Below, in pieces: positions 14,894 through 30,511 of a DNA stretch of 30,931 nucleotides. The stretch comes from a virus. Lineage: Duplodnaviria > Heunggongvirae > Uroviricota > Caudoviricetes. Position numbers and translations under genes: made by a program. Location: IMG/VR virus record IMGVR_UViG_2651869725_000007; one strand, given 5' to 3'. Position 1 is the stretch's first letter. Each line of letters starts with the position of its first letter. The notes under the pieces were generated by a model. The model worked only from the letters and a program-made list of their open reading frames with translations, was not told the DNA's origin and searched no databases.

Positions 14894-15373
14894 TCACGGT
14901 ATACACTGGGTACGGATATATTCCTGTGCTCCTTCCAGTTGCTTTTGCATTGTCATCAGCCGTTCTCTGAGGGTGAAATAATCCCGTTCAGCGGTGTCTG
15001 CCAGTCGGGGGGCGGCTGCATTACCCACGCCGGGGGCGGCGGTGGCTTCACGTCCGGCCTGACAGACTGCTCTGATGCGCAACCGACGACGACCAGCGGC
15101 AATATCATCACGCAGAGCATCATTTTCAGCTTTTGCATCAGCTAACTCCCTTGAGTATTTTTCATCCAGTGCAGCAACATCGCGCTGACGCTGCTGCATG
15201 TCAGTAATGGTGGCGTTCGCCTTGCTGAGTTTTTCCTTCGCTTTATCGAGCTGGTCTTTGTAGGCGATGGCGTTATCACGATAATAATTGACTGCCCATG
15301 ACAGGCAGACGATGATGCAAATAACCAGAGCATAAATAATCGCGGCGACTCTGCTCACTGATCTATCCCCCAA
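14894..15373 (-). CDS. Rz: i-spanin Rz
   Basis: Matches lambda Rz (…[26 protein letters not shown]…[11 protein letters not shown]…); overlaps the end of R. Confidence 0.88.
14956..15138 (-). CDS. Rz1: o-spanin Rz1, lipoprotein embedded in Rz
   Basis: 60-aa ORF nested in another frame of Rz: [22 protein letters not shown]…[27 protein letters not shown]; lipobox and Pro-rich core as in lambda Rz1. Confidence 0.85.
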
Positions 15374-15888
15374 CAGGCTAATGCGCTTTCCTGGTCACGA
15401 CGAATAACCTGTCCATAGCAGTTATTTGAACGTATGCGGCAATCGCGCCCACCATCTTTTATCCACCAGCGAATCGCCTCGCATGCACCCTTACGATCAC
15501 CGGCATTCAGCCGCTTATAAAACGTCGACGGGAAACACTTACCGGGGCCAATGTTATAGGGACAAAATGACGCGATACCCGCTTTCTGTGGTTCAGTCAG
15601 TGGTACTTTAATATTGCGCTCCACCCATGCCAGCGCCTTATCACGTTCAATGGCGTTAACCAGGTCGCATTTTTCCTTCGACAGTTTCATACCGGGAAAA
15701 ACGGGTTTTCCATCCACCACCGTGGCCCCCCGACAGATGGTCCATATGCCGGAACCATCGCAGTATGCCGCTGTGTGGTTACCTTCTTTTTCGTCCAGAA
15801 ACTGGTCGAGTATTTGAGGAGCAGACGCGCCTGCAGCAATCAGCGCCAGAACGGCTGCTGACAGGCCGTATTTGATATTAGCATTCAT
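15355..15888 (-). CDS. R: SAR endolysin (GH24 lysozyme with N-terminal signal-anchor-release segment)
   Basis: 177-aa ORF with a hydrophobic N-terminus ([15 protein letters not shown]) followed by a catalytic E…D…T pattern typical of T4-type lysozymes. Confidence 0.85.
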
Positions 15889-16318: not shown

Positions 16319-16347
16319 AGCGGCAGTAATGCCGCTTTATATTTTTT
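16319..16347 (+). terminator. intrinsic terminator for the 98-aa plus-strand gene
   Basis: Hairpin AGCGGCA-GTAA-TGCCGCT followed by TTATATTTTTT. Confidence 0.5.
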
Positions 16348-16555
16348 CAGCCAAATCTCTCAAGAACTGTTTGGCATGTTTTACCGCAGTAACTTCATAA
16401 TAATCCAAACCAGCTCCTTCAAGTCGCTCAAGGTTGATGTTCAGATCAAAAATTTCACCGGCAAAACGTTCTTTGTCCTGTAACGTTAAGATTACCGTAA
16501 CTTTATTCTCAAAATTGCGGGTCCCTTTCACAATCAGTTCATAGTTTTTAGTCAT
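16337..16555 (-). CDS. hypothetical protein coupled to the holin, possibly YdfR/DUF1327-like
   Basis: 72-aa ORF whose GAGGAG ribosome-binding site lies in the holin 3' end and whose ATG is 4 nt after the holin stop. Family resemblance is from memory. Confidence 0.5.
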   Translation of the reverse strand: MTKNYELIVKGTRNFENKVTVILTLQDKERFAGEIFDLNINLERLEGAGLDYYEVTAVKHAKQFLRDLAEKI

Positions 16556-16559
16556 TGTC

Positions 16560-16775
16560 TTACTCTCCTCTCGCAGCCTTACGCCTGTCTTCTTTAATTT
16601 TGAAATAAAGGTTTGTCAGGTACGTCAGCAAGCCAAACACCAGGCTACCCAATACACCTATTGCCACCCACTGGGATGGGGAGACTTTGTCCAGCAACTG
16701 CAGTAGCCAGTATCCCGTCCCCACCGCTGAAGTGGTGTATGACACACCTGTTGTGATTTTTTCCATCTGGTACAT
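16560..16775 (-). CDS. S: class II holin / pinholin (phage 21 S-type) with dual start motif
   Basis: …[71 protein letters not shown] matches phage 21 S pattern; two Met codons 3 residues apart. Confidence 0.85.
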
Positions 16776-17184
16776 ACCCCGTCTCCCGTTATCCGGAAGC
16801 TGACAACAATAAAAAGCCACCAGTTAATTCCTGATGTCCCTGAGGCATAAACGTCATAATACCTGACTGTTATGATTGACAATAATGATAATGTTTATAT
16901 AGAAAGGTTCCCGATATGTGTTACATATCATTTCTCCACGGGGAATATCCCCACGCCAGCGCAGACTCTTTTACCCGTTCTCTTCTGCGCTGGCTCTTTT
17001 TTTATTATGCTGCTGCATTTACCTCTGGCACCAGGCTTTTTATCTCAACACCATACGTGGTACTTCGTGTAACCAATATCATAACGATTAATCGACATCG
17101 AATTTCTCCCGTGTACAGGAACAGAGTTAAAAAGCCGGAACCGGAATCAAATCACAGGATGACCATCTGCCAGTGGCTGGTCGT

Positions 17185-17212
17185 AAAAAAAAGGCCGCGC
17201 CATGCGCAGCCG
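17185..17212 (-). terminator. strong intrinsic terminator downstream of the TerB-like cassette
   Basis: On the minus strand: GGCTGCGC-ATG-GCGCGGCC followed by nine T. Confidence 0.55.
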
Positions 17213-17426
17213 GAAATAAAGGGATAACGATGATAGTTTGAGAAAAACAGAAATAACACTTTTGTGGCAAAGCATGGTGCCGGGTGCCTCCCGGTGAATT
17301 CAGCCGGTGTCACTGAACCCGCGTCGGCTTGCCTATAACATAATAAATGCTACCTACACCAGTCGCCCCTCCGCACAGGGGGATTCACCATGCAGAAGTG
17401 TTTTTAATAAACAGTAAACAAAAAAA

Positions 17427-17594
17427 TCAAGCATTATGCAGGCTGTTTCTTTTTATCACCGGCCACAGCAATACCACAATGCCGCAGACCAGCACCCCAT
17501 CCGCCAGCACCGACATGATTCTGCTGGTGAAATCCACCATCACCACCAGAAACAGCAGGAGTGCAGCCACAGTCAGGCGCAGTTTTACCGTCAC
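17427..17594 (-). CDS. putative small membrane protein (55 aa), GTG start overlapping the TerB-like stop
   Basis: Not in the ORF track. GTGA start/stop overlap and a GGAGA ribosome-binding site; product VTVKLRLTVAALLLFLVVMVDFTSRIMSVLADGVLVCGIVVLLWPVIKRNSLHNA has two hydrophobic segments. Confidence 0.4.
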   Translation of the reverse strand: MTVKLRLTVAALLLFLVVMVDFTSRIMSVLADGVLVCGIVVLLWPVIKRNSLHNA

Positions 17595-18052
17595 AGGTGA
17601 TTCTCCAGACGAAGACCCAGAACACCGGCAATCTCTTCCAGCACCTTGCGCTCTTCCGGCTCAATTTCGCCGTCTGCCTCCGCAATGGCCACCGCCACAT
17701 CCAGCACATCTTCCGCTTCACGCGTATCGTGTTTCACATCCTCGATCTCACGTAACGCCGCACGACGACCAATTTTAAAGTTCGTATCCAGCTGACCGAT
17801 AATGGTTGCGCTCATCGCATTAATTTCTGACGTAAACGCGGACAGCGCTGGCTGATTACGCAGTACCTGTTCGATCTTCGCTTTCTCGGAAGCCTCACAT
17901 TCACCATCTGCACAGGCCACCAGGTATGCGGCGTTAATCACCGCCTGTGCCAGATCGCGTTTTTCAAACTTTTTAATTTCCGTTGCCGCTCTGCGGGCTT
18001 TTTTTACCAAAAATACCAAACATCGTGACGTTCCTTTGGGTGGGTGAGCCAA
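17591..18052 (-). CDS. TerB-domain (tellurite-resistance TerB-like) protein
   Basis: 153-aa ORF with two TerB-type repeats: …AAYLVACADGECEASEKAKIEQVL… and …VAVAIAEADGEIEPEERKVLEEIAGVLGL…. Confidence 0.55.
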   Translation of the reverse strand: MAHPPKGTSRCLVFLVKKARRAATEIKKFEKRDLAQAVINAAYLVACADGECEASEKAKIEQVLRNQPALSAFTSEINAMSATIIGQLDTNFKIGRRAALREIEDVKHDTREAEDVLDVAVAIAEADGEIEPEERKVLEEIAGVLGLRLENHL

Positions 18053-18192
18053 CGCCCGGGAGCGATCTGCCCACAGAGAAAGTCACACTGACCACTCCAT
18101 AAGCTCCCCCCGAAAGGCTCTGTGGTTGGTATGCGCCGGGCGTGGTGCGGATACAAAAAAGGTCCGCAAAAGCGAGCGAGGGAAAATAAGTG

Positions 18193-18269
18193 TGGTGCGT
18201 TGTACTGGGTTCGAACCAGTGACCGATTGCTTAGAAGGCAATTGCTCTGTCCGGCTGAGCTAACAACGC
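18193..18269 (-). tRNA. tRNA-Arg (anticodon UCU)
   Basis: Hand-folded cloverleaf on the minus strand: 7-bp acceptor stem, anticodon loop CTTCTAA, T-loop TTCGAAC, 3' CCA encoded. Confidence 0.88.
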
Positions 18270-18282
18270 AGAATACCGATAA

Positions 18283-18359
18283 TGGACCGCCATCGGAGAC
18301 TCGAACCCCGCGAAACCAGCTTCGAAGGCTGGCGTTCTATCCCGATGAGCTAATGGCGG
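18283..18359 (-). tRNA. tRNA-Arg (anticodon UCG)
   Basis: Cloverleaf on the minus strand with anticodon loop CTTCGAA, T-loop TTCGAGT, 3' CCA; one mismatch in the D stem. Confidence 0.82.
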
Positions 18360-18360
18360 T

Positions 18361-18436
18361 TGGTGGCCCTTGCTGGATTTGAACCAGCGACCTGGCGATT
18401 ATGAGTCGCTCGCTCTCACCACTGAGCTAAAGGGCC
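18361..18436 (-). tRNA. tRNA-Ile2 (anticodon CAU), ileX/ileZ-like
   Basis: Minus-strand sequence GGCCCTTTAGCTCAGTGG…CTCATAATCGCC…GGTTCAAATCC…GGGCCACCA closely follows E. coli ileX as recalled. Confidence 0.85.
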
Positions 18437-18476
18437 GGGAGCAGAATAATAACGGTGCATAATTAATTCTTCAATA

Positions 18477-19535
18477 TCATCCGTTCTGGCTGACTAAATC
18501 CTGTACTTCCCGAACCGTCTGCTCAAAACGTTCAGTCTCCAGTTCAACACCAGTTGCACGACGTCCCAGCGCCATCGCTGCTTTGACTGTCGAACCCGAC
18601 CCCATGAAGAAATCTGCAACCAGGTCTCCCGGACGACTGCTTGCGCTGATTATCTGCTGCAACATTTCTGCCGGTTTTTCGCACGGATGTTTCCCGGGAT
18701 AGTAATGCATCGGTTTATGCGTCCACACATCGGTGTACGGCACCTGCACCGTCACACCGAAATACCGCCGCAGATGCTTATATTCACTCTGCAGTTCCGT
18801 ATACTGCCGGTTCAGTTCACTGTATGTGCTGACCAGCTGGTGGTGTGGCTTTTCCAGTTCACAGCGTTGATGTTTTTCTGCTGCAACACGCGCAAACAAC
18901 GCCTGTAATTTCAGATAATCGCCTTCGTTCGGCAACTGCCACTGACTGATACCAAACCAGTGCGAAACCATGTTTTTCTTTCCGGTGGCTTCCGCTATCT
19001 GTTTTGACGTTATTCCCAGTGATTCACGCGCATCACGAAAGTAAGAAATCAGCGGGGCCATGACGTGCTGTTTTAGCTCGCGCCCCTTTGCCGCATAGCC
19101 GTCATTTTTGGGCTGGTATGGCCCCTGATAATGTTCTGCAAACAGAATGCGTTCTGTTGCCGGGAAATACGCCCGCAGGCTTTCCTTGTTGCATCCGTTC
19201 CAGCGTCCGGACGGCTTCGCCCAGATAATGTGGTTCAGCACATTAAAGCGTTCACGCATCATGATTTCGGTATCAGATGCCAGACGATGACCACAGAACA
19301 GGTAAAGACTTCCGGCAGGTTTTAATACCCGCCAGAACTGCGCAAGGCACTGGTCCAGCCATTTCAGGTAATCAGCGTCCCCCTTCCACTGGTTATCCCA
19401 GCCTTCGGGTTTCACTTTAAAGTATGGCGGGTCTGTGACTATCAGATCGACAGAGTTTTCCGGTAAGGTCTGGATAAATTTCAGGCAATCAGCGTTGATT
19501 AACTCACAGCTGGATATTTTTACAGTGTTAGTCAT
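18477..19535 (-). CDS. orphan DNA methyltransferase, beta-class (N6-adenine or N4-cytosine)
   Basis: 352-aa ORF with motif IV TDPPY near the N-terminus and motif I FFMGSGST near the C-terminus; no restriction enzyme gene nearby. Confidence 0.85.
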   Translation of the reverse strand: MTNTVKISSCELINADCLKFIQTLPENSVDLIVTDPPYFKVKPEGWDNQWKGDADYLKWLDQCLAQFWRVLKPAGSLYLFCGHRLASDTEIMMRERFNVLNHIIWAKPSGRWNGCNKESLRAYFPATERILFAEHYQGPYQPKNDGYAAKGRELKQHVMAPLISYFRDARESLGITSKQIAEATGKKNMVSHWFGISQWQLPNEGDYLKLQALFARVAAEKHQRCELEKPHHQLVSTYSELNRQYTELQSEYKHLRRYFGVTVQVPYTDVWTHKPMHYYPGKHPCEKPAEMLQQIISASSRPGDLVADFFMGSGSTVKAAMALGRRATGVELETERFEQTVREVQDLVSQNG

Positions 19536-19671
19536 AGATCAATAAGCACTTCTCTGATAGGCTCATTCTGCTTTTGCGCAAAGCAGATGGGCCTGAGGTT
19601 TGCTTGTGACCCCAACGCATGAGCAGATGGCTGGCAGGTGCCGCTAACACCCACCAGCCGCCCATTACCAC

Positions 19672-19699
19672 AAATAAAAAAGCCTTCAGGGCTGAAGGC
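19672..19699 (-). terminator. intrinsic terminator at the 3' end of the 65-aa gene
   Basis: On the minus strand: GCCTTCAG-CC-CTGAAGGC followed by TTTTTTATTT; the hairpin includes the stop codon. Confidence 0.45.
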
Positions 19700-19883
19700 G
19701 TCTGTAACAACCGAACTGATAATCTGCCAGACCCGCCATAACAAGCTGGGTCAGTATTAACTGGCAGCGTTCGCGTGAAAGGTAAGTATTCTGCGCAATC
19801 TCCCCGACTGTCGCCGGGTCGGTAACGCTTAATTCATTAAACACCACTCTGGCGGTTTCTGTCATATCCTGCTGTTTTAGCAT
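19686..19883 (-). CDS. small hypothetical protein with a possible helix-turn-helix
   Basis: 65-aa ORF between tR' and the methyltransferase; segment TVGEIAQNTYLSRERCQLILTQLVMAGL looks like a winged-helix. No family assigned. Confidence 0.4.
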   Translation of the reverse strand: MLKQQDMTETARVVFNELSVTDPATVGEIAQNTYLSRERCQLILTQLVMAGLADYQFGCYRRLQP

Positions 19884-20003
19884 GTCTTTTTTCCCTTTTG
19901 GTTAACGTGACATACCAATAACTCTTGTCGAAAAAGCCAGCAAGTTGAAAGACCGGTATTCGCAACCACCAGCGCGTTTAACGTCCTGTGCCGTTTTTCA
20001 GGC

Positions 20004-20030
20004 AATAAAAAACCCGCTCGGTGGCGGGTT
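20004..20030 (-). terminator. candidate tR', terminator of a short pR' transcript
   Basis: On the minus strand: AACCCGC-CACCGA-GCGGGTT followed by TTTTATTGCC, about 80-110 nt below the Q-like stop. Confidence 0.5.
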
Positions 20031-20077: not shown

Positions 20078-20105
20078 AATTTACCACAGATTCGGGAAAA
20101 ATCAA
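20078..20105 (-). promoter_or_regulatory. candidate late promoter pR'
   Basis: On the minus strand just after the Q-like stop: -35 TTGATT, 16-nt spacer, extended -10 TGGTAAATT. Confidence 0.4.
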
Positions 20106-20110
20106 CAACA

Positions 20111-20932
20111 CTATCGCGTTACCCTCTTTAACTGCCGCTCCGCCCATGCCTCTTCAATGTCAAACCGAACCACCAACGTATCGTAAAAGCGTTTCACTGA
20201 TTTTTTCCATGTATCAAGCGTGATAGCACTCGTCACTTTGCATATGGCATTAAATGCCTCCGTTGATGGCAGTCTTTCATAGCCACGACCGCCACAACAC
20301 CGGCAGTCCCTGATAACAGGCATACCCCGTTTTTCTGACTCTTCACGATGAATGGCAACACCACGCCCACGGCAGTCTTTACAGGCAGTGGAGATCTCTC
20401 CCTTCCCTTTACATTCTGGACAGGAAACTTTCACCACCTCCCGGATTTTTTTCCATTCTTCCCAATAAGACGGATACACGCCTTTTGTGCACTTTGCCCA
20501 TACTGGCGGCTTACCATCCGGATACTGAACCTTGTTTGTAAAAACTTCGCTTTCAATAAATTTTTCCCCACGGCAACAAGAACACTGCTTTTTACTCGCT
20601 GCACTGCGGGCATAATCCTCAAAAGCATACGAAGCCATAATGCGCATCACTGCCGGTTTTATTTCTGCCGGAAGTTTTCTTAACGCCGCCACGCGATCGC
20701 ACTGACTTAATGCATAATCTGCCAGTAATTCTGTTGCCCGCACCCTGTCGTTCATACTAATGCCCATTTTCCCCAGGAACGCAGAAAATCCCATCTCAGC
20801 CCGGTTCTGTGTCATGCCCTGTGCAGCCATCACATCAGTGATACTCAGTGCATCTTTTGATGTCGAGGCGGATGCATCAGTCAGGCCTGGCGATTTCGGG
20901 GAATAGTATTTCGGTAAATCTTCCAGTTTCAT
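20111..20932 (-). CDS. Q-like late antiterminator with multiple Cys-x-x-Cys zinc-finger motifs
   Basis: 273-aa ORF after rusA and before a promoter/terminator pair; CSCCRGEKF, CPECKGKGE, CKDCRGRG, CRCCGGRG. Assigned by position and motifs. Confidence 0.6.
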   Translation of the reverse strand: MKLEDLPKYYSPKSPGLTDASASTSKDALSITDVMAAQGMTQNRAEMGFSAFLGKMGISMNDRVRATELLADYALSQCDRVAALRKLPAEIKPAVMRIMASYAFEDYARSAASKKQCSCCRGEKFIESEVFTNKVQYPDGKPPVWAKCTKGVYPSYWEEWKKIREVVKVSCPECKGKGEISTACKDCRGRGVAIHREESEKRGMPVIRDCRCCGGRGYERLPSTEAFNAICKVTSAITLDTWKKSVKRFYDTLVVRFDIEEAWAERQLKRVTR

Positions 20933-21303
20933 TTTTTGACCTGCCCGTCATGCATTATTTCGTAAATTTTCACGCCCAACCGACCACCAGGAACAGGCAG
21001 ACCGCGCACAATATTAATTTCATCAAACTGCTCGTCGTCTATGAGTAGTCCGGCATGCGTCAGCGCATCCAGTGGTGCTTTCAGGATATTGTCCAGGTCA
21101 CGACGGCGCTTATCCGGTGGCTCTGCAATAATCTTTATCGCCAGCCTTCCGGACAGGTTTAATTTCAACCGCTTCTGGCGAACAATGAGCGCCACATCAC
21201 GGCGATAACGCTCACCGGATTTTGATACAAAATATGTGCTGCCACGACGTCGCCAGTAGGTGTTCACCGTCGGCGGGTAAGGCAAAACAAACTCTATACG
21301 CAT
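20929..21303 (-). CDS. rusA: Holliday junction resolvase RusA
   Basis: 124-aa ORF with the RusA core …PPDKRRRDLDNILKAPLDALTHAGLLIDDEQ…. Confidence 0.85.
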   Translation of the reverse strand: MRIEFVLPYPPTVNTYWRRRGSTYFVSKSGERYRRDVALIVRQKRLKLNLSGRLAIKIIAEPPDKRRRDLDNILKAPLDALTHAGLLIDDEQFDEINIVRGLPVPGGRLGVKIYEIMHDGQVKK

Positions 21304-23189: not shown

Positions 23190-23345
23190 TTACTCCTCAG
23201 GTTCGTAAGCTGTGAAGACAGCGACCTCCGTCTGGCCGGTTCGGATTCGTACCTCGCAGAGGTCTTTCCTCGTTACCAGTGCCGTCACTATGACGGTTAA
23301 ACAGATGACGATCAGGGCGATTAACATCGCCTTTTGCTGCTTCAT
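23190..23345 (-). CDS. hokD: Hok/Gef-family membrane toxin (HokD/RelF-like)
   Basis: 51-aa product MKQQKAMLIALIVICLTVIVTALVTRKDLCEVRIRTGQTEVAVFTAYEPEE matches HokD as recalled; start at an internal ATG of the longer ORF. Confidence 0.85.
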   Translation of the reverse strand: MKQQKAMLIALIVICLTVIVTALVTRKDLCEVRIRTGQTEVAVFTAYEPEE

Positions 23346-23536
23346 AGCCTGCTTCTCCTTGACCTTTCGGTCCGTAAGAGGCAATCTATATGTGACGAGC
23401 ATATAGGGGCCTCACTTCGATTTATAGTCGGGTGGGGCTTTTATCTATCTGCCGTTGGTGTTCATGCCCAAGGCAGATAGCCTCAAGCACCCGCAGCAAT
23501 TCTACTTAACTCTGCCGTTACAGCAAGCCGTTTTCG

Positions 23537-30458: not shown

Positions 30459-30511
30459 TTTCTGGTGACGTTTGGCGGTATCAGTTTTACTCCGTGACTG
30501 CTCTGCCGCCC
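30459..30511 (+). ncRNA. dicF: DicF small regulatory RNA
   Basis: 53 nt TTTCTGGTGACGTTTGGCGGTATCAGTTTTACTCCGTGACTGCTCTGCCGCCC followed by TTTTT; matches K-12 DicF as recalled; about 175 nt upstream of dicB. Confidence 0.8.

Follow-up and report, generated by a model that had tools for sequence, protein, structure and literature searches.

The genes tciA-tciB(-tciC) of bacteriophage P1 and terB/upf69.4/upf69.6 of P7 encode a TerB protein of ~141–143 aa and, directly after it, a DUF3927 protein of ~54 aa, with tRNAs adjacent. P1 tciA, tciB, and tciC and P7 terB were annotated two decades ago, citing homologues in the O157:H7 cryptic prophages CP-933R and CP-933P. Here, we analyzed a DNA stretch of 30,931 nt from a Caudoviricetes virus (IMG/VR record IMGVR_UViG_2651869725_000007; the whole stretch is hereafter called the window), which carries, between tRNA genes and lysis genes, a two-gene cassette whose first product is 41–52% identical to the P1/P7 TerB proteins and whose second is 50% identical to their DUF3927 partner. 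The original prediction, made from the letters of the window alone, overstated the novelty of this cassette: it is the long-annotated tciA/tciB pair, already known from P1, PHROGs 632/1470, Pfam, and the Prokaryotic Genome Annotation Pipeline (PGAP), and annotated in thousands of genomes. Likewise, the slot that it occupies is a well-known moron site of Shiga toxin (Stx) phages. On our preferred account, to which as a whole we give a probability of roughly 55%, the window carries one copy of tciA-tciB, an accessory ("moron") cassette widespread among phages, in a slot of the lambdoid late operon where cargo is exchanged. All features of interest are on the minus strand, and the numbering is that of the whole window.

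The window differs from P1 in that P1 has a third gene of 35 aa, tciC, and in that the P1 genes belong to the C1-controlled early ban operon, whereas those of the window lie in a Q-dependent late operon. No counterpart of the third gene of P1/P7 was seen: the stretch from tciB to the STnc100 element downstream of it contains no start of a minus-strand open reading frame (ORF) of at least 30 aa, and P1 TciC has no Pfam match that could serve as a query. The TerB protein of Klebsiella pneumoniae (terZABCDE(F); structure 2JXU) is homologous to TciA almost throughout, with the same predicted fold class and paired acidic motifs; however, the partners in ter operons are TerC, TerD, TerE, and TerZ, whereas in the window the partner is a 55-aa DUF3927 protein in a phage late operon. 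The cassette does not belong to a ter operon, as its neighbors are tRNAs, a methylase, DUF3927, a holin, and a lysozyme. TerB-type domains with membrane-associated partners, as we propose for tciAB, are also found in Shango (SngA), Bunzi (BnzA), and Dionysus (DinB), in which they are described as amphitropic membrane-surveillance modules (bioRxiv 10.1101/2025.09.30.679545); in Dionysus, the TerB-like protein is paired with transmembrane proteins. Unlike these systems, the cassette is phage-borne, in virulent phages too, and has no adjacent helicase, ATPase, or pore-toxin gene.

The translation of the TerB gene matched the Pfam TerB profile (PF05099) with E = 6.8e-15 and 55.8 bits (cut-off 24.4 bits), residues 36–148 aligning with profile positions 2–109 of 118. 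Along almost its entire length, it also matched the solved TerB structure 2JXU (E = 2.8e-8; query 13–136, chain 20–144), and the predicted fold is all-helical and TerB-like, in the same fold class as TerB. The match to PHROG 632 was stronger still (E = 1.8e-66), with residues 13–153 of a 153-aa ORF on positions 3–143 of 143. Two ADGE...E...L motifs are legible in the translation, ACADGECEASEKAKIEQVL and AEADGEIEPEERKVLEEIAGVL, and among 24 homologues D38, E45, D116, G117, and E123 of these two acidic motifs are invariant or nearly so. The charge is +5 in the first 22 residues and −12 over the remainder. The TerB gene is real and no chance ORF, and the models show TciA as a predicted cytoplasmic, acidic, all-helical TerB-fold protein with a short hydrophobic-then-basic N-terminus. 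The profile search proposed with the original prediction thus gave a positive result, as did the comparison with the solved structure; of the 153-aa protein with two TerB-type repeats that had been described, the repeats stood and the length did not, the product being likely 142 aa (see below).

The second gene, tciB, overlaps the tciA stop codon by 4 nt (GTGA). Its product matched Pfam DUF3927 (E = 3.3e-17) and PHROG 1470 (E = 5.6e-30), and hydropathy and charge analysis revealed two hydrophobic segments with a +2 charge at each end, which is consistent with a predicted in-in hairpin. The arrangement shows a 55-aa protein that, judged by the overlap, would be translationally coupled to tciA, in agreement with the coupled small membrane ORF that had been proposed. 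TciB can be aligned with the partners from P1, Pollock, and ChrisDB, and its exact sequence is present on 997 contigs. Public databases also hold TerB-DUF3927 fusion proteins of 170–197 aa, one of which is named "zinc-finger family protein"; these apparently arose by read-through or a frameshift at the GTGA overlap.

The cargo slot, its borders, and the first lysis gene are as follows:

18193–18436, minus strand: tRNA array, left flank of the cargo slot (ARAGORN and Rfam tRNA)
18361–18436, minus strand: ileZ-like tRNA with anticodon CAT (called tRNA-Met by ARAGORN)
18283–18359, minus strand: tRNA-Arg(UCG) (ARAGORN)
18193–18269, minus strand: tRNA-Arg(UCU) (ARAGORN)
17591–18019, minus strand: tciA, TerB family, probably 142 aa from TTG 18019 (Pfam, PHROG, PGAP counterpart)
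17427–17594, minus strand: tciB, DUF3927 micro-protein, 55 aa (Pfam, PHROG)
17239–17419, minus strand: STnc100-family small RNA (sRNA) element, right flank of the cargo slot (Rfam RF02076)
17185–17211, minus strand: strong intrinsic terminator closing the cargo/sRNA unit (stem 17211–17193, then T8)
16560–16820, minus strand: phage 21-type class II holin, first lysis gene (Pfam Phage_holin_2_1, E = 1.2e-32)

The counterparts of the CAT tRNA are tRNA-Ile according to PGAP in the closely related E. coli EC12 locus and ileZ in the Stx2a phage annotation.

By blastn, positions 18144–20030 of the window (tRNAs, methylase, a small ORF, and the terminator tR′) were 89.4% identical to the phage Stx2a_WGPS2, in which the counterpart of this block is the ileZ/argN/argO block; the homology begins at tR′. 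On the other side, positions 17273–17411 (STnc100) were 81% identical to the sequence just 3′ of stx2B. Between the two homologous blocks lie tciAB (~730 nt) in the window and stx2AB (~1370 nt) in Stx2a_WGPS2. A three-way alignment further revealed that the slot of PhiR49_2 is empty, with the tRNA-Arg hairpin and T-run joined directly to the sequence upstream of STnc100. Because the flanks are homologous, only tciAB and stx2AB differ between them, and an empty allele exists, these alignments support, at base-pair resolution, the reading that the tciAB slot corresponds to the stx slot, as had been claimed from the gene order alone. In Stx2a_WGPS2, as in the window, the slot lies after Q and before the lysis genes, with the methylase and ileZ-argN-argO upstream and STnc100 downstream. 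Its cargo, however, is an AB5 toxin instead of a TerB-fold protein with a micro-membrane protein, and a nanS-p esterase and two small genes that precede the holin in Stx2a_WGPS2 are absent from the window. In JLK-2012, the same tciAB-sRNA unit follows a different Q and different tRNAs and is itself followed by a nanS-p esterase, the gene that follows stx in Stx phages. A comparison of the cargo in related prophages, which had also been suggested, showed that the order tRNAs, tciA, tciB, STnc100, terminator, and holin is kept in most of 80 related prophage loci (IMG/VR).

The right border of the slot starts 8 nt past the tciB stop codon. The match to STnc100 (RF02076) at 17239–17419 scored 116.8 bits (gathering score 47) and covered model positions 1–206 of 206. 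The call is based on the Rfam model and not on RNA folding; the fold of 17180–17430 alone was not significant against shuffles (z = −1.1). The closing terminator, GGCTGCGC-ATG-GCGCGGCC (8 pairs, 7 of them GC) followed by T8, is also present in the minimum-free-energy fold, and the stem at 17193–17211 is most simply read as the 3′ terminus of the sRNA/cargo unit. The strong terminator of the original prediction was therefore found as an 8-bp, 7-GC stem with a T-run, but it does not directly follow the small ORF, since the STnc100 sRNA in between had been missed. The alignments place STnc100 as the conserved right border of the slot, part of the backbone rather than of the cargo.

The window element is a full-length member of the STnc100/EcOnc27 (sRNA103)/PasD family and stands at the position of the sRNA 3′ of stx2B (PMC12711010, PMC12370729). 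STnc100 overlaps the Hfq-binding sRNA EcOnc27/sRNA103 (PMC12711010). The distance from stx2B to STnc100 is 75 nt (PMC12370729); the window copy thus differs from those of Stx phages in lying 8 nt after tciB instead of ~75 nt after stxB. In EDL933, eleven STnc100 copies are annotated, all with RNA-seq reads in uninduced cells and one confirmed by Northern blot (PMC5331693). According to a 2026 preprint, the prophage sRNAs PasA and PasC adjoin the holin, with TerB and RusA genes typically no more than 10 kb away. Between the terminator and the holin of the window, we observed an Esr41-like element on the plus strand (16915–17005; 28 bits, below the gathering score of 102; E = 0.008) with its own GC-rich terminator and T-run and a promoter-like site at 16863–16892. 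It may be a PasA/PasC-type sRNA of the kind reported near holin and TerB genes. An ORF at 16916–17227 on the plus strand has an EC12 counterpart that is flagged as a frameshifted fragment, and another plus-strand ORF (17347–17778) runs antisense to the cassette. Elsewhere in the prophage, Rfam detected the sok antitoxin RNA (23343–23492, minus strand, 104.6 bits) and the DicF sRNA (30460–30511, plus strand, 76.7 bits).

The pair is common in E. coli. We found tciAB in ~15% of complete E. coli genomes (840 of 5426), and the genomes that carry it have a median of 6 copies and at most 10; PGAP labels the products "tellurite resistance TerB family protein" and "DUF3927 family protein". In enterohemorrhagic and Shiga toxin-producing E. 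coli (EHEC/STEC; O157:H7, O111, O145), there is apparently about one copy per lambdoid prophage. Among 31 distinct tciA alleles, the synonymous divergence (pS) was 0.25 and the nonsynonymous divergence (pN) 0.007, a pN/pS of 0.029; for tciB, nine closely related alleles gave a pN/pS of 0.43. The tciA gene is under strong purifying selection.

Relatives of TciA were detected by tblastn in 131 phage records, including P1/P7/D6, jumbo Erwinia and Salmonella phages, N4-like phages, and phages of Pseudomonas, Vibrio, Pantoea, and Klebsiella. A small partner lies directly 3′ of the TciA gene in P1, P7, N4-like Pollock, jumbo Erwinia phage ChrisDB, lambdoid Fostie, and Klebsiella phage 5. For P1 and Pollock, this partner gave a DUF3927 score of its own; for P7, Fostie, and Klebsiella phage 5, it was assigned by annotation or similarity; and in ChrisDB, it is annotated as TciB-like and is 31% identical, with no Pfam match. 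In Fostie and Klebsiella phage 5 (TciA ~43% identical), the pair likewise sits between Q and the lysis genes. In Pseudomonas phage AF, the TerB stop codon is overlapped by another kind of small membrane ORF, a single-pass one; this unannotated ORF (L090 3432–3653) encodes 73 aa with one strong hydrophobic segment, and the overlap is 4 nt. Collectively, these comparisons show tciA and tciB as a pair that is kept together across unrelated phage types.

tRNAs adjoin tciAB in the window type, JLK-2012, Evi, P1/P7, ChrisDB, and Klebsiella phage 5. In P1, all three tRNAs lie within 1.6 kb of tciABC; in Klebsiella phage 5, tRNA-Thr precedes tciA; and in ChrisDB, tciAB is embedded in a tRNA array. No tRNAs were found near tciAB or TerB in Fostie, Pollock, PMBT3, and AF (flanks of 2–3 kb on each side), and in Vibrio K479 the nearest tRNA is 2 kb from the TerB gene. 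A universal linkage of tciAB to tRNAs was rejected on account of these phages, several of which have no adjacent tRNA, and the linkage that is seen may merely reflect shared moron hot-spots.

In the 5′ to 3′ direction of the minus strand, the order of the late region is RusA, Q, a pR′ candidate, tR′, a 65-aa ORF, the methylase, and tRNA-Ile2/Arg/Arg, followed by tciA, tciB, the STnc100 element, the terminator, the holin, DUF1327, the lysozyme, and Rz. The order Q, pR′/tR′, tRNAs, cargo, and lysis genes had been read correctly in the original prediction, which omitted the methylase and the 65-aa ORF between tR′ and the tRNAs. The features outside the slot are as follows:

20929–21303, minus strand: RusA, upstream of Q
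20111–20932, minus strand: late antiterminator Q, 273 aa (Pfam Antiterm PF03589, E = 3.3e-48)
20078–20105, minus strand: candidate pR′ late promoter, read by hand (TTGATT, 16-nt spacer, TGgTAAATT)
20005–20030, minus strand: tR′-like intrinsic terminator, 7-bp stem AACCCGC...GCGGGTT (20030–20011), then a T-run
19686–19883, minus strand: 65-aa ORF (PHROG 331, E = 1.5e-37), kept in the Stx2a phage
19682–19699, minus strand: second terminator, after the 65-aa ORF (terminator scan)
18477–19535, minus strand: N6/N4 DNA methyltransferase, 352 aa (Pfam PF01555, E = 5e-43; PADLOC MTase_II, E = 9e-159)
16337–16555, minus strand: DUF1327, 3′ of the holin
15355–15888, minus strand: lysozyme, lysis cassette
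14894–15373, minus strand: Rz, lysis cassette

The Q homologue in the EC12 locus is named "antitermination protein" by PGAP, and the tR′-like terminator lies ~80 nt past the Q stop codon. The sequence at 20078–20105, which we infer to be a candidate pR′ from reading by eye, has 8 of 12 consensus positions and an extended −10 and was not flagged by the promoter scan.

Judged by position, Q-modified RNA polymerase would read past all three terminators (tR′, the second one, and that at 17193–17211), and the tciAB pair would be made in bulk after induction, just before the lysis genes. We infer this high late expression by analogy with stx and with established lambdoid biology. In the lysogen, a promoter close to the tRNAs might also allow some expression. 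Our tentative proposal for the function, which we regard as distinctly less probable than the identity of the cassette, is that TciB would serve as an anchor for TciA on the inner side of the cytoplasmic membrane and that the complex would buffer or sense membrane or ion stress during infection. It might thereby protect the membrane energization of the infected cell against superinfecting phages, pore-forming colicins, and membrane-acting abortive-infection effectors. This mechanism is suggested because ter operons confer phage-inhibition and colicin-resistance phenotypes and because TerB domains are viewed as amphitropic membrane sensors; tellurite resistance from tciAB alone would not be expected.

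Several observations weigh against this interpretation. No functional study of TciA or TciB was found in the literature on tciA/tciB, DUF3927, and phage TerB, and the P1 tci genes were non-essential in a CRISPR interference screen (PMC10695390). No PADLOC defense model matched TciA convincingly in the copy used, which predates Dionysus (the best, PDC-S48, gave E = 0.0032 with no passing stretch), and TciB matched none; the association with defense had therefore been overstated. No small membrane partner was found in the TerB-carrying phages PMBT3 and Vibrio K479. The timing of expression also varies, as P1 (early) and the window (late) illustrate, and in Pollock tciAB looks, judged by its neighbors, as if it lay in the early/replication part of the N4-like genome. 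Because timing differs between phages, the link to lysis is perhaps coincidental. As to expression in the lysogen, the promoter scan was at chance level (4 sites versus 4.6 expected), so that no promoter of its own can be claimed for tciAB; the scan gave a candidate upstream of the tRNAs (18474–18446) and no promoter-like site between the tRNAs and tciA. Finally, the start codon of tciA in the window was created by a frameshift, so its expression may be reduced or lost.

Three other functional explanations seem to us improbable to a similar degree. The first is a lysogenic-conversion defense, in which a promoter of its own or that of the tRNAs would drive the cassette in the lysogen, with transcription ending at 17193–17211, and the products would exclude superinfecting phages or colicins to the advantage of the host. 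The moron-like anatomy with a strong downstream terminator, the candidate promoter upstream of the tRNAs, the transcription of STnc100 copies in uninduced EDL933 (PMC5331693), and the name of the P1 tci genes, which derives from the colicin-resistance/phage-inhibition phenotype of ter clusters, all fit such a role. However, the chance-level promoter scan with its empty interval before tciA and the lack of a defense-family match speak against it, and a median of 6 copies in EHEC genomes exceeds the need of a defense function.

The second is a counter-defense decoy: TciA would mimic host TerB-type sensors (ter operon, Shango, Bunzi, Dionysus) and titrate or poison them, so that the phage escapes. 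A TerB homologue with a small partner is carried by strictly virulent phages (N4-like Pollock, jumbo Erwinia), for which lysogenic conversion is irrelevant; Dionysus, which contains TerB, acts specifically on jumbo phages; and TciA aligns with ter-operon TerB over its full length. Yet the PADLOC models showed no detectable similarity to the TerB proteins of defense systems, and since virulent phages use superinfection exclusion too, carriage of the gene does not discriminate between the two roles. The third, which we likewise consider doubtful, combines these ideas in a pan-phage membrane-level counter-defense/exclusion module, shared by lambdoid prophages, P1, N4-like phages, and jumbo phages, in which a TerB mimic tethered by the micro-membrane protein would either block TerB surveillance (phage inhibition by ter operons, or systems of the Dionysus type) or keep the membrane energized until the holin fires. 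If this were true, the tRNA linkage would mark a mobile "infection-support" module, and the 6–10 copies in EHEC would act as a dosage effect.

Less probable again is that the window copy is a decaying pseudogene, in which an extra A breaks the canonical frame and the cassette is a passive recombination passenger in the slot. By the mechanical rule of starting at the first TTG after a stop codon, the TerB ORF spans 17591–18052 (153 aa); this upstream TTG has no ribosome-binding site, and the PHROG 632 alignment does not start until residue 13. The homologue alignment and the PGAP call led us to reject 153 aa as the length of the true product. The tciA homologues in phages Evi and JLK-2012 encode 143 aa that begin with MFGIFGKK, from an ATG with a good Shine-Dalgarno sequence. 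In the window, the corresponding ATG (18023–18021) is out of frame because the A-run at 17999–18005 has seven A's instead of the six in JLK-2012 and other alleles; translation from it gives MFGIFGKKSPQSGNGN and reaches a stop after 16 codons. This early stop, together with the many truncated or fused tciA variants in public data, would fit decay.

However, four bases past that ATG, the TTG at 18019 restores the frame, uses the same Shine-Dalgarno sequence, and opens a 142-aa protein (MVFLVKKARR...). Both start types give an N-terminus that is hydrophobic at its tip and basic after it, with hydrophobic moments of 0.55 (TTG) and 0.58 (ATG). PGAP calls the same 142-aa TTG product as intact in the E. 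coli EC12 locus (98.6% identical, same A7 run). Moreover, the exact 142-aa TciA is present on 184 public contigs, several diverged MVFLVKK variants exist besides, the gene is otherwise intact, and strong purifying selection acts on the family, as described above. A sequencing error as the source of the A7 run is unlikely, given the same allele in the complete EC12 genome and the exact protein on 184 contigs. Among the carriers of the A7 allele is a UniRef entry with an identifier that points to Escherichia albertii. The product of tciA in the window is thus likely the 142-aa protein predicted from TTG 18019, and we regard the gene as a live allele with a minority chance of impairment.

Tellurite resistance, the function in the database name, is very improbable: apart from that name and the TerB homology nothing speaks for it, the resistance needs several ter genes together, no terC, terD, terE, or terZ is present in the neighborhood, the flanking genes are all of phage origin, and the P1 annotators named their genes only "by homology".

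The reading of the cassette as a tciA-tciB moron in an exchangeable late-operon slot adds several elements to what was known of the pair: the boundaries of the slot in its tciAB-filled, toxin-filled, and empty forms, the STnc100 element, the start allele with A7 and TTG, and the very large number of copies per EHEC genome. The tciA gene is strongly conserved by selection and the pair is common to virulent phages as well; the literature searched yielded no experiment on what it does. In the related E. coli prophages examined, tciAB is a cargo that repeatedly fills the slot equivalent to that of stx. Comparison of the tciAB-filled, stx-filled, and empty slots places the exchange boundaries at the hairpin/T-run after tRNA-Arg and at STnc100, and these boundaries are useful for understanding the gain and loss of stx.

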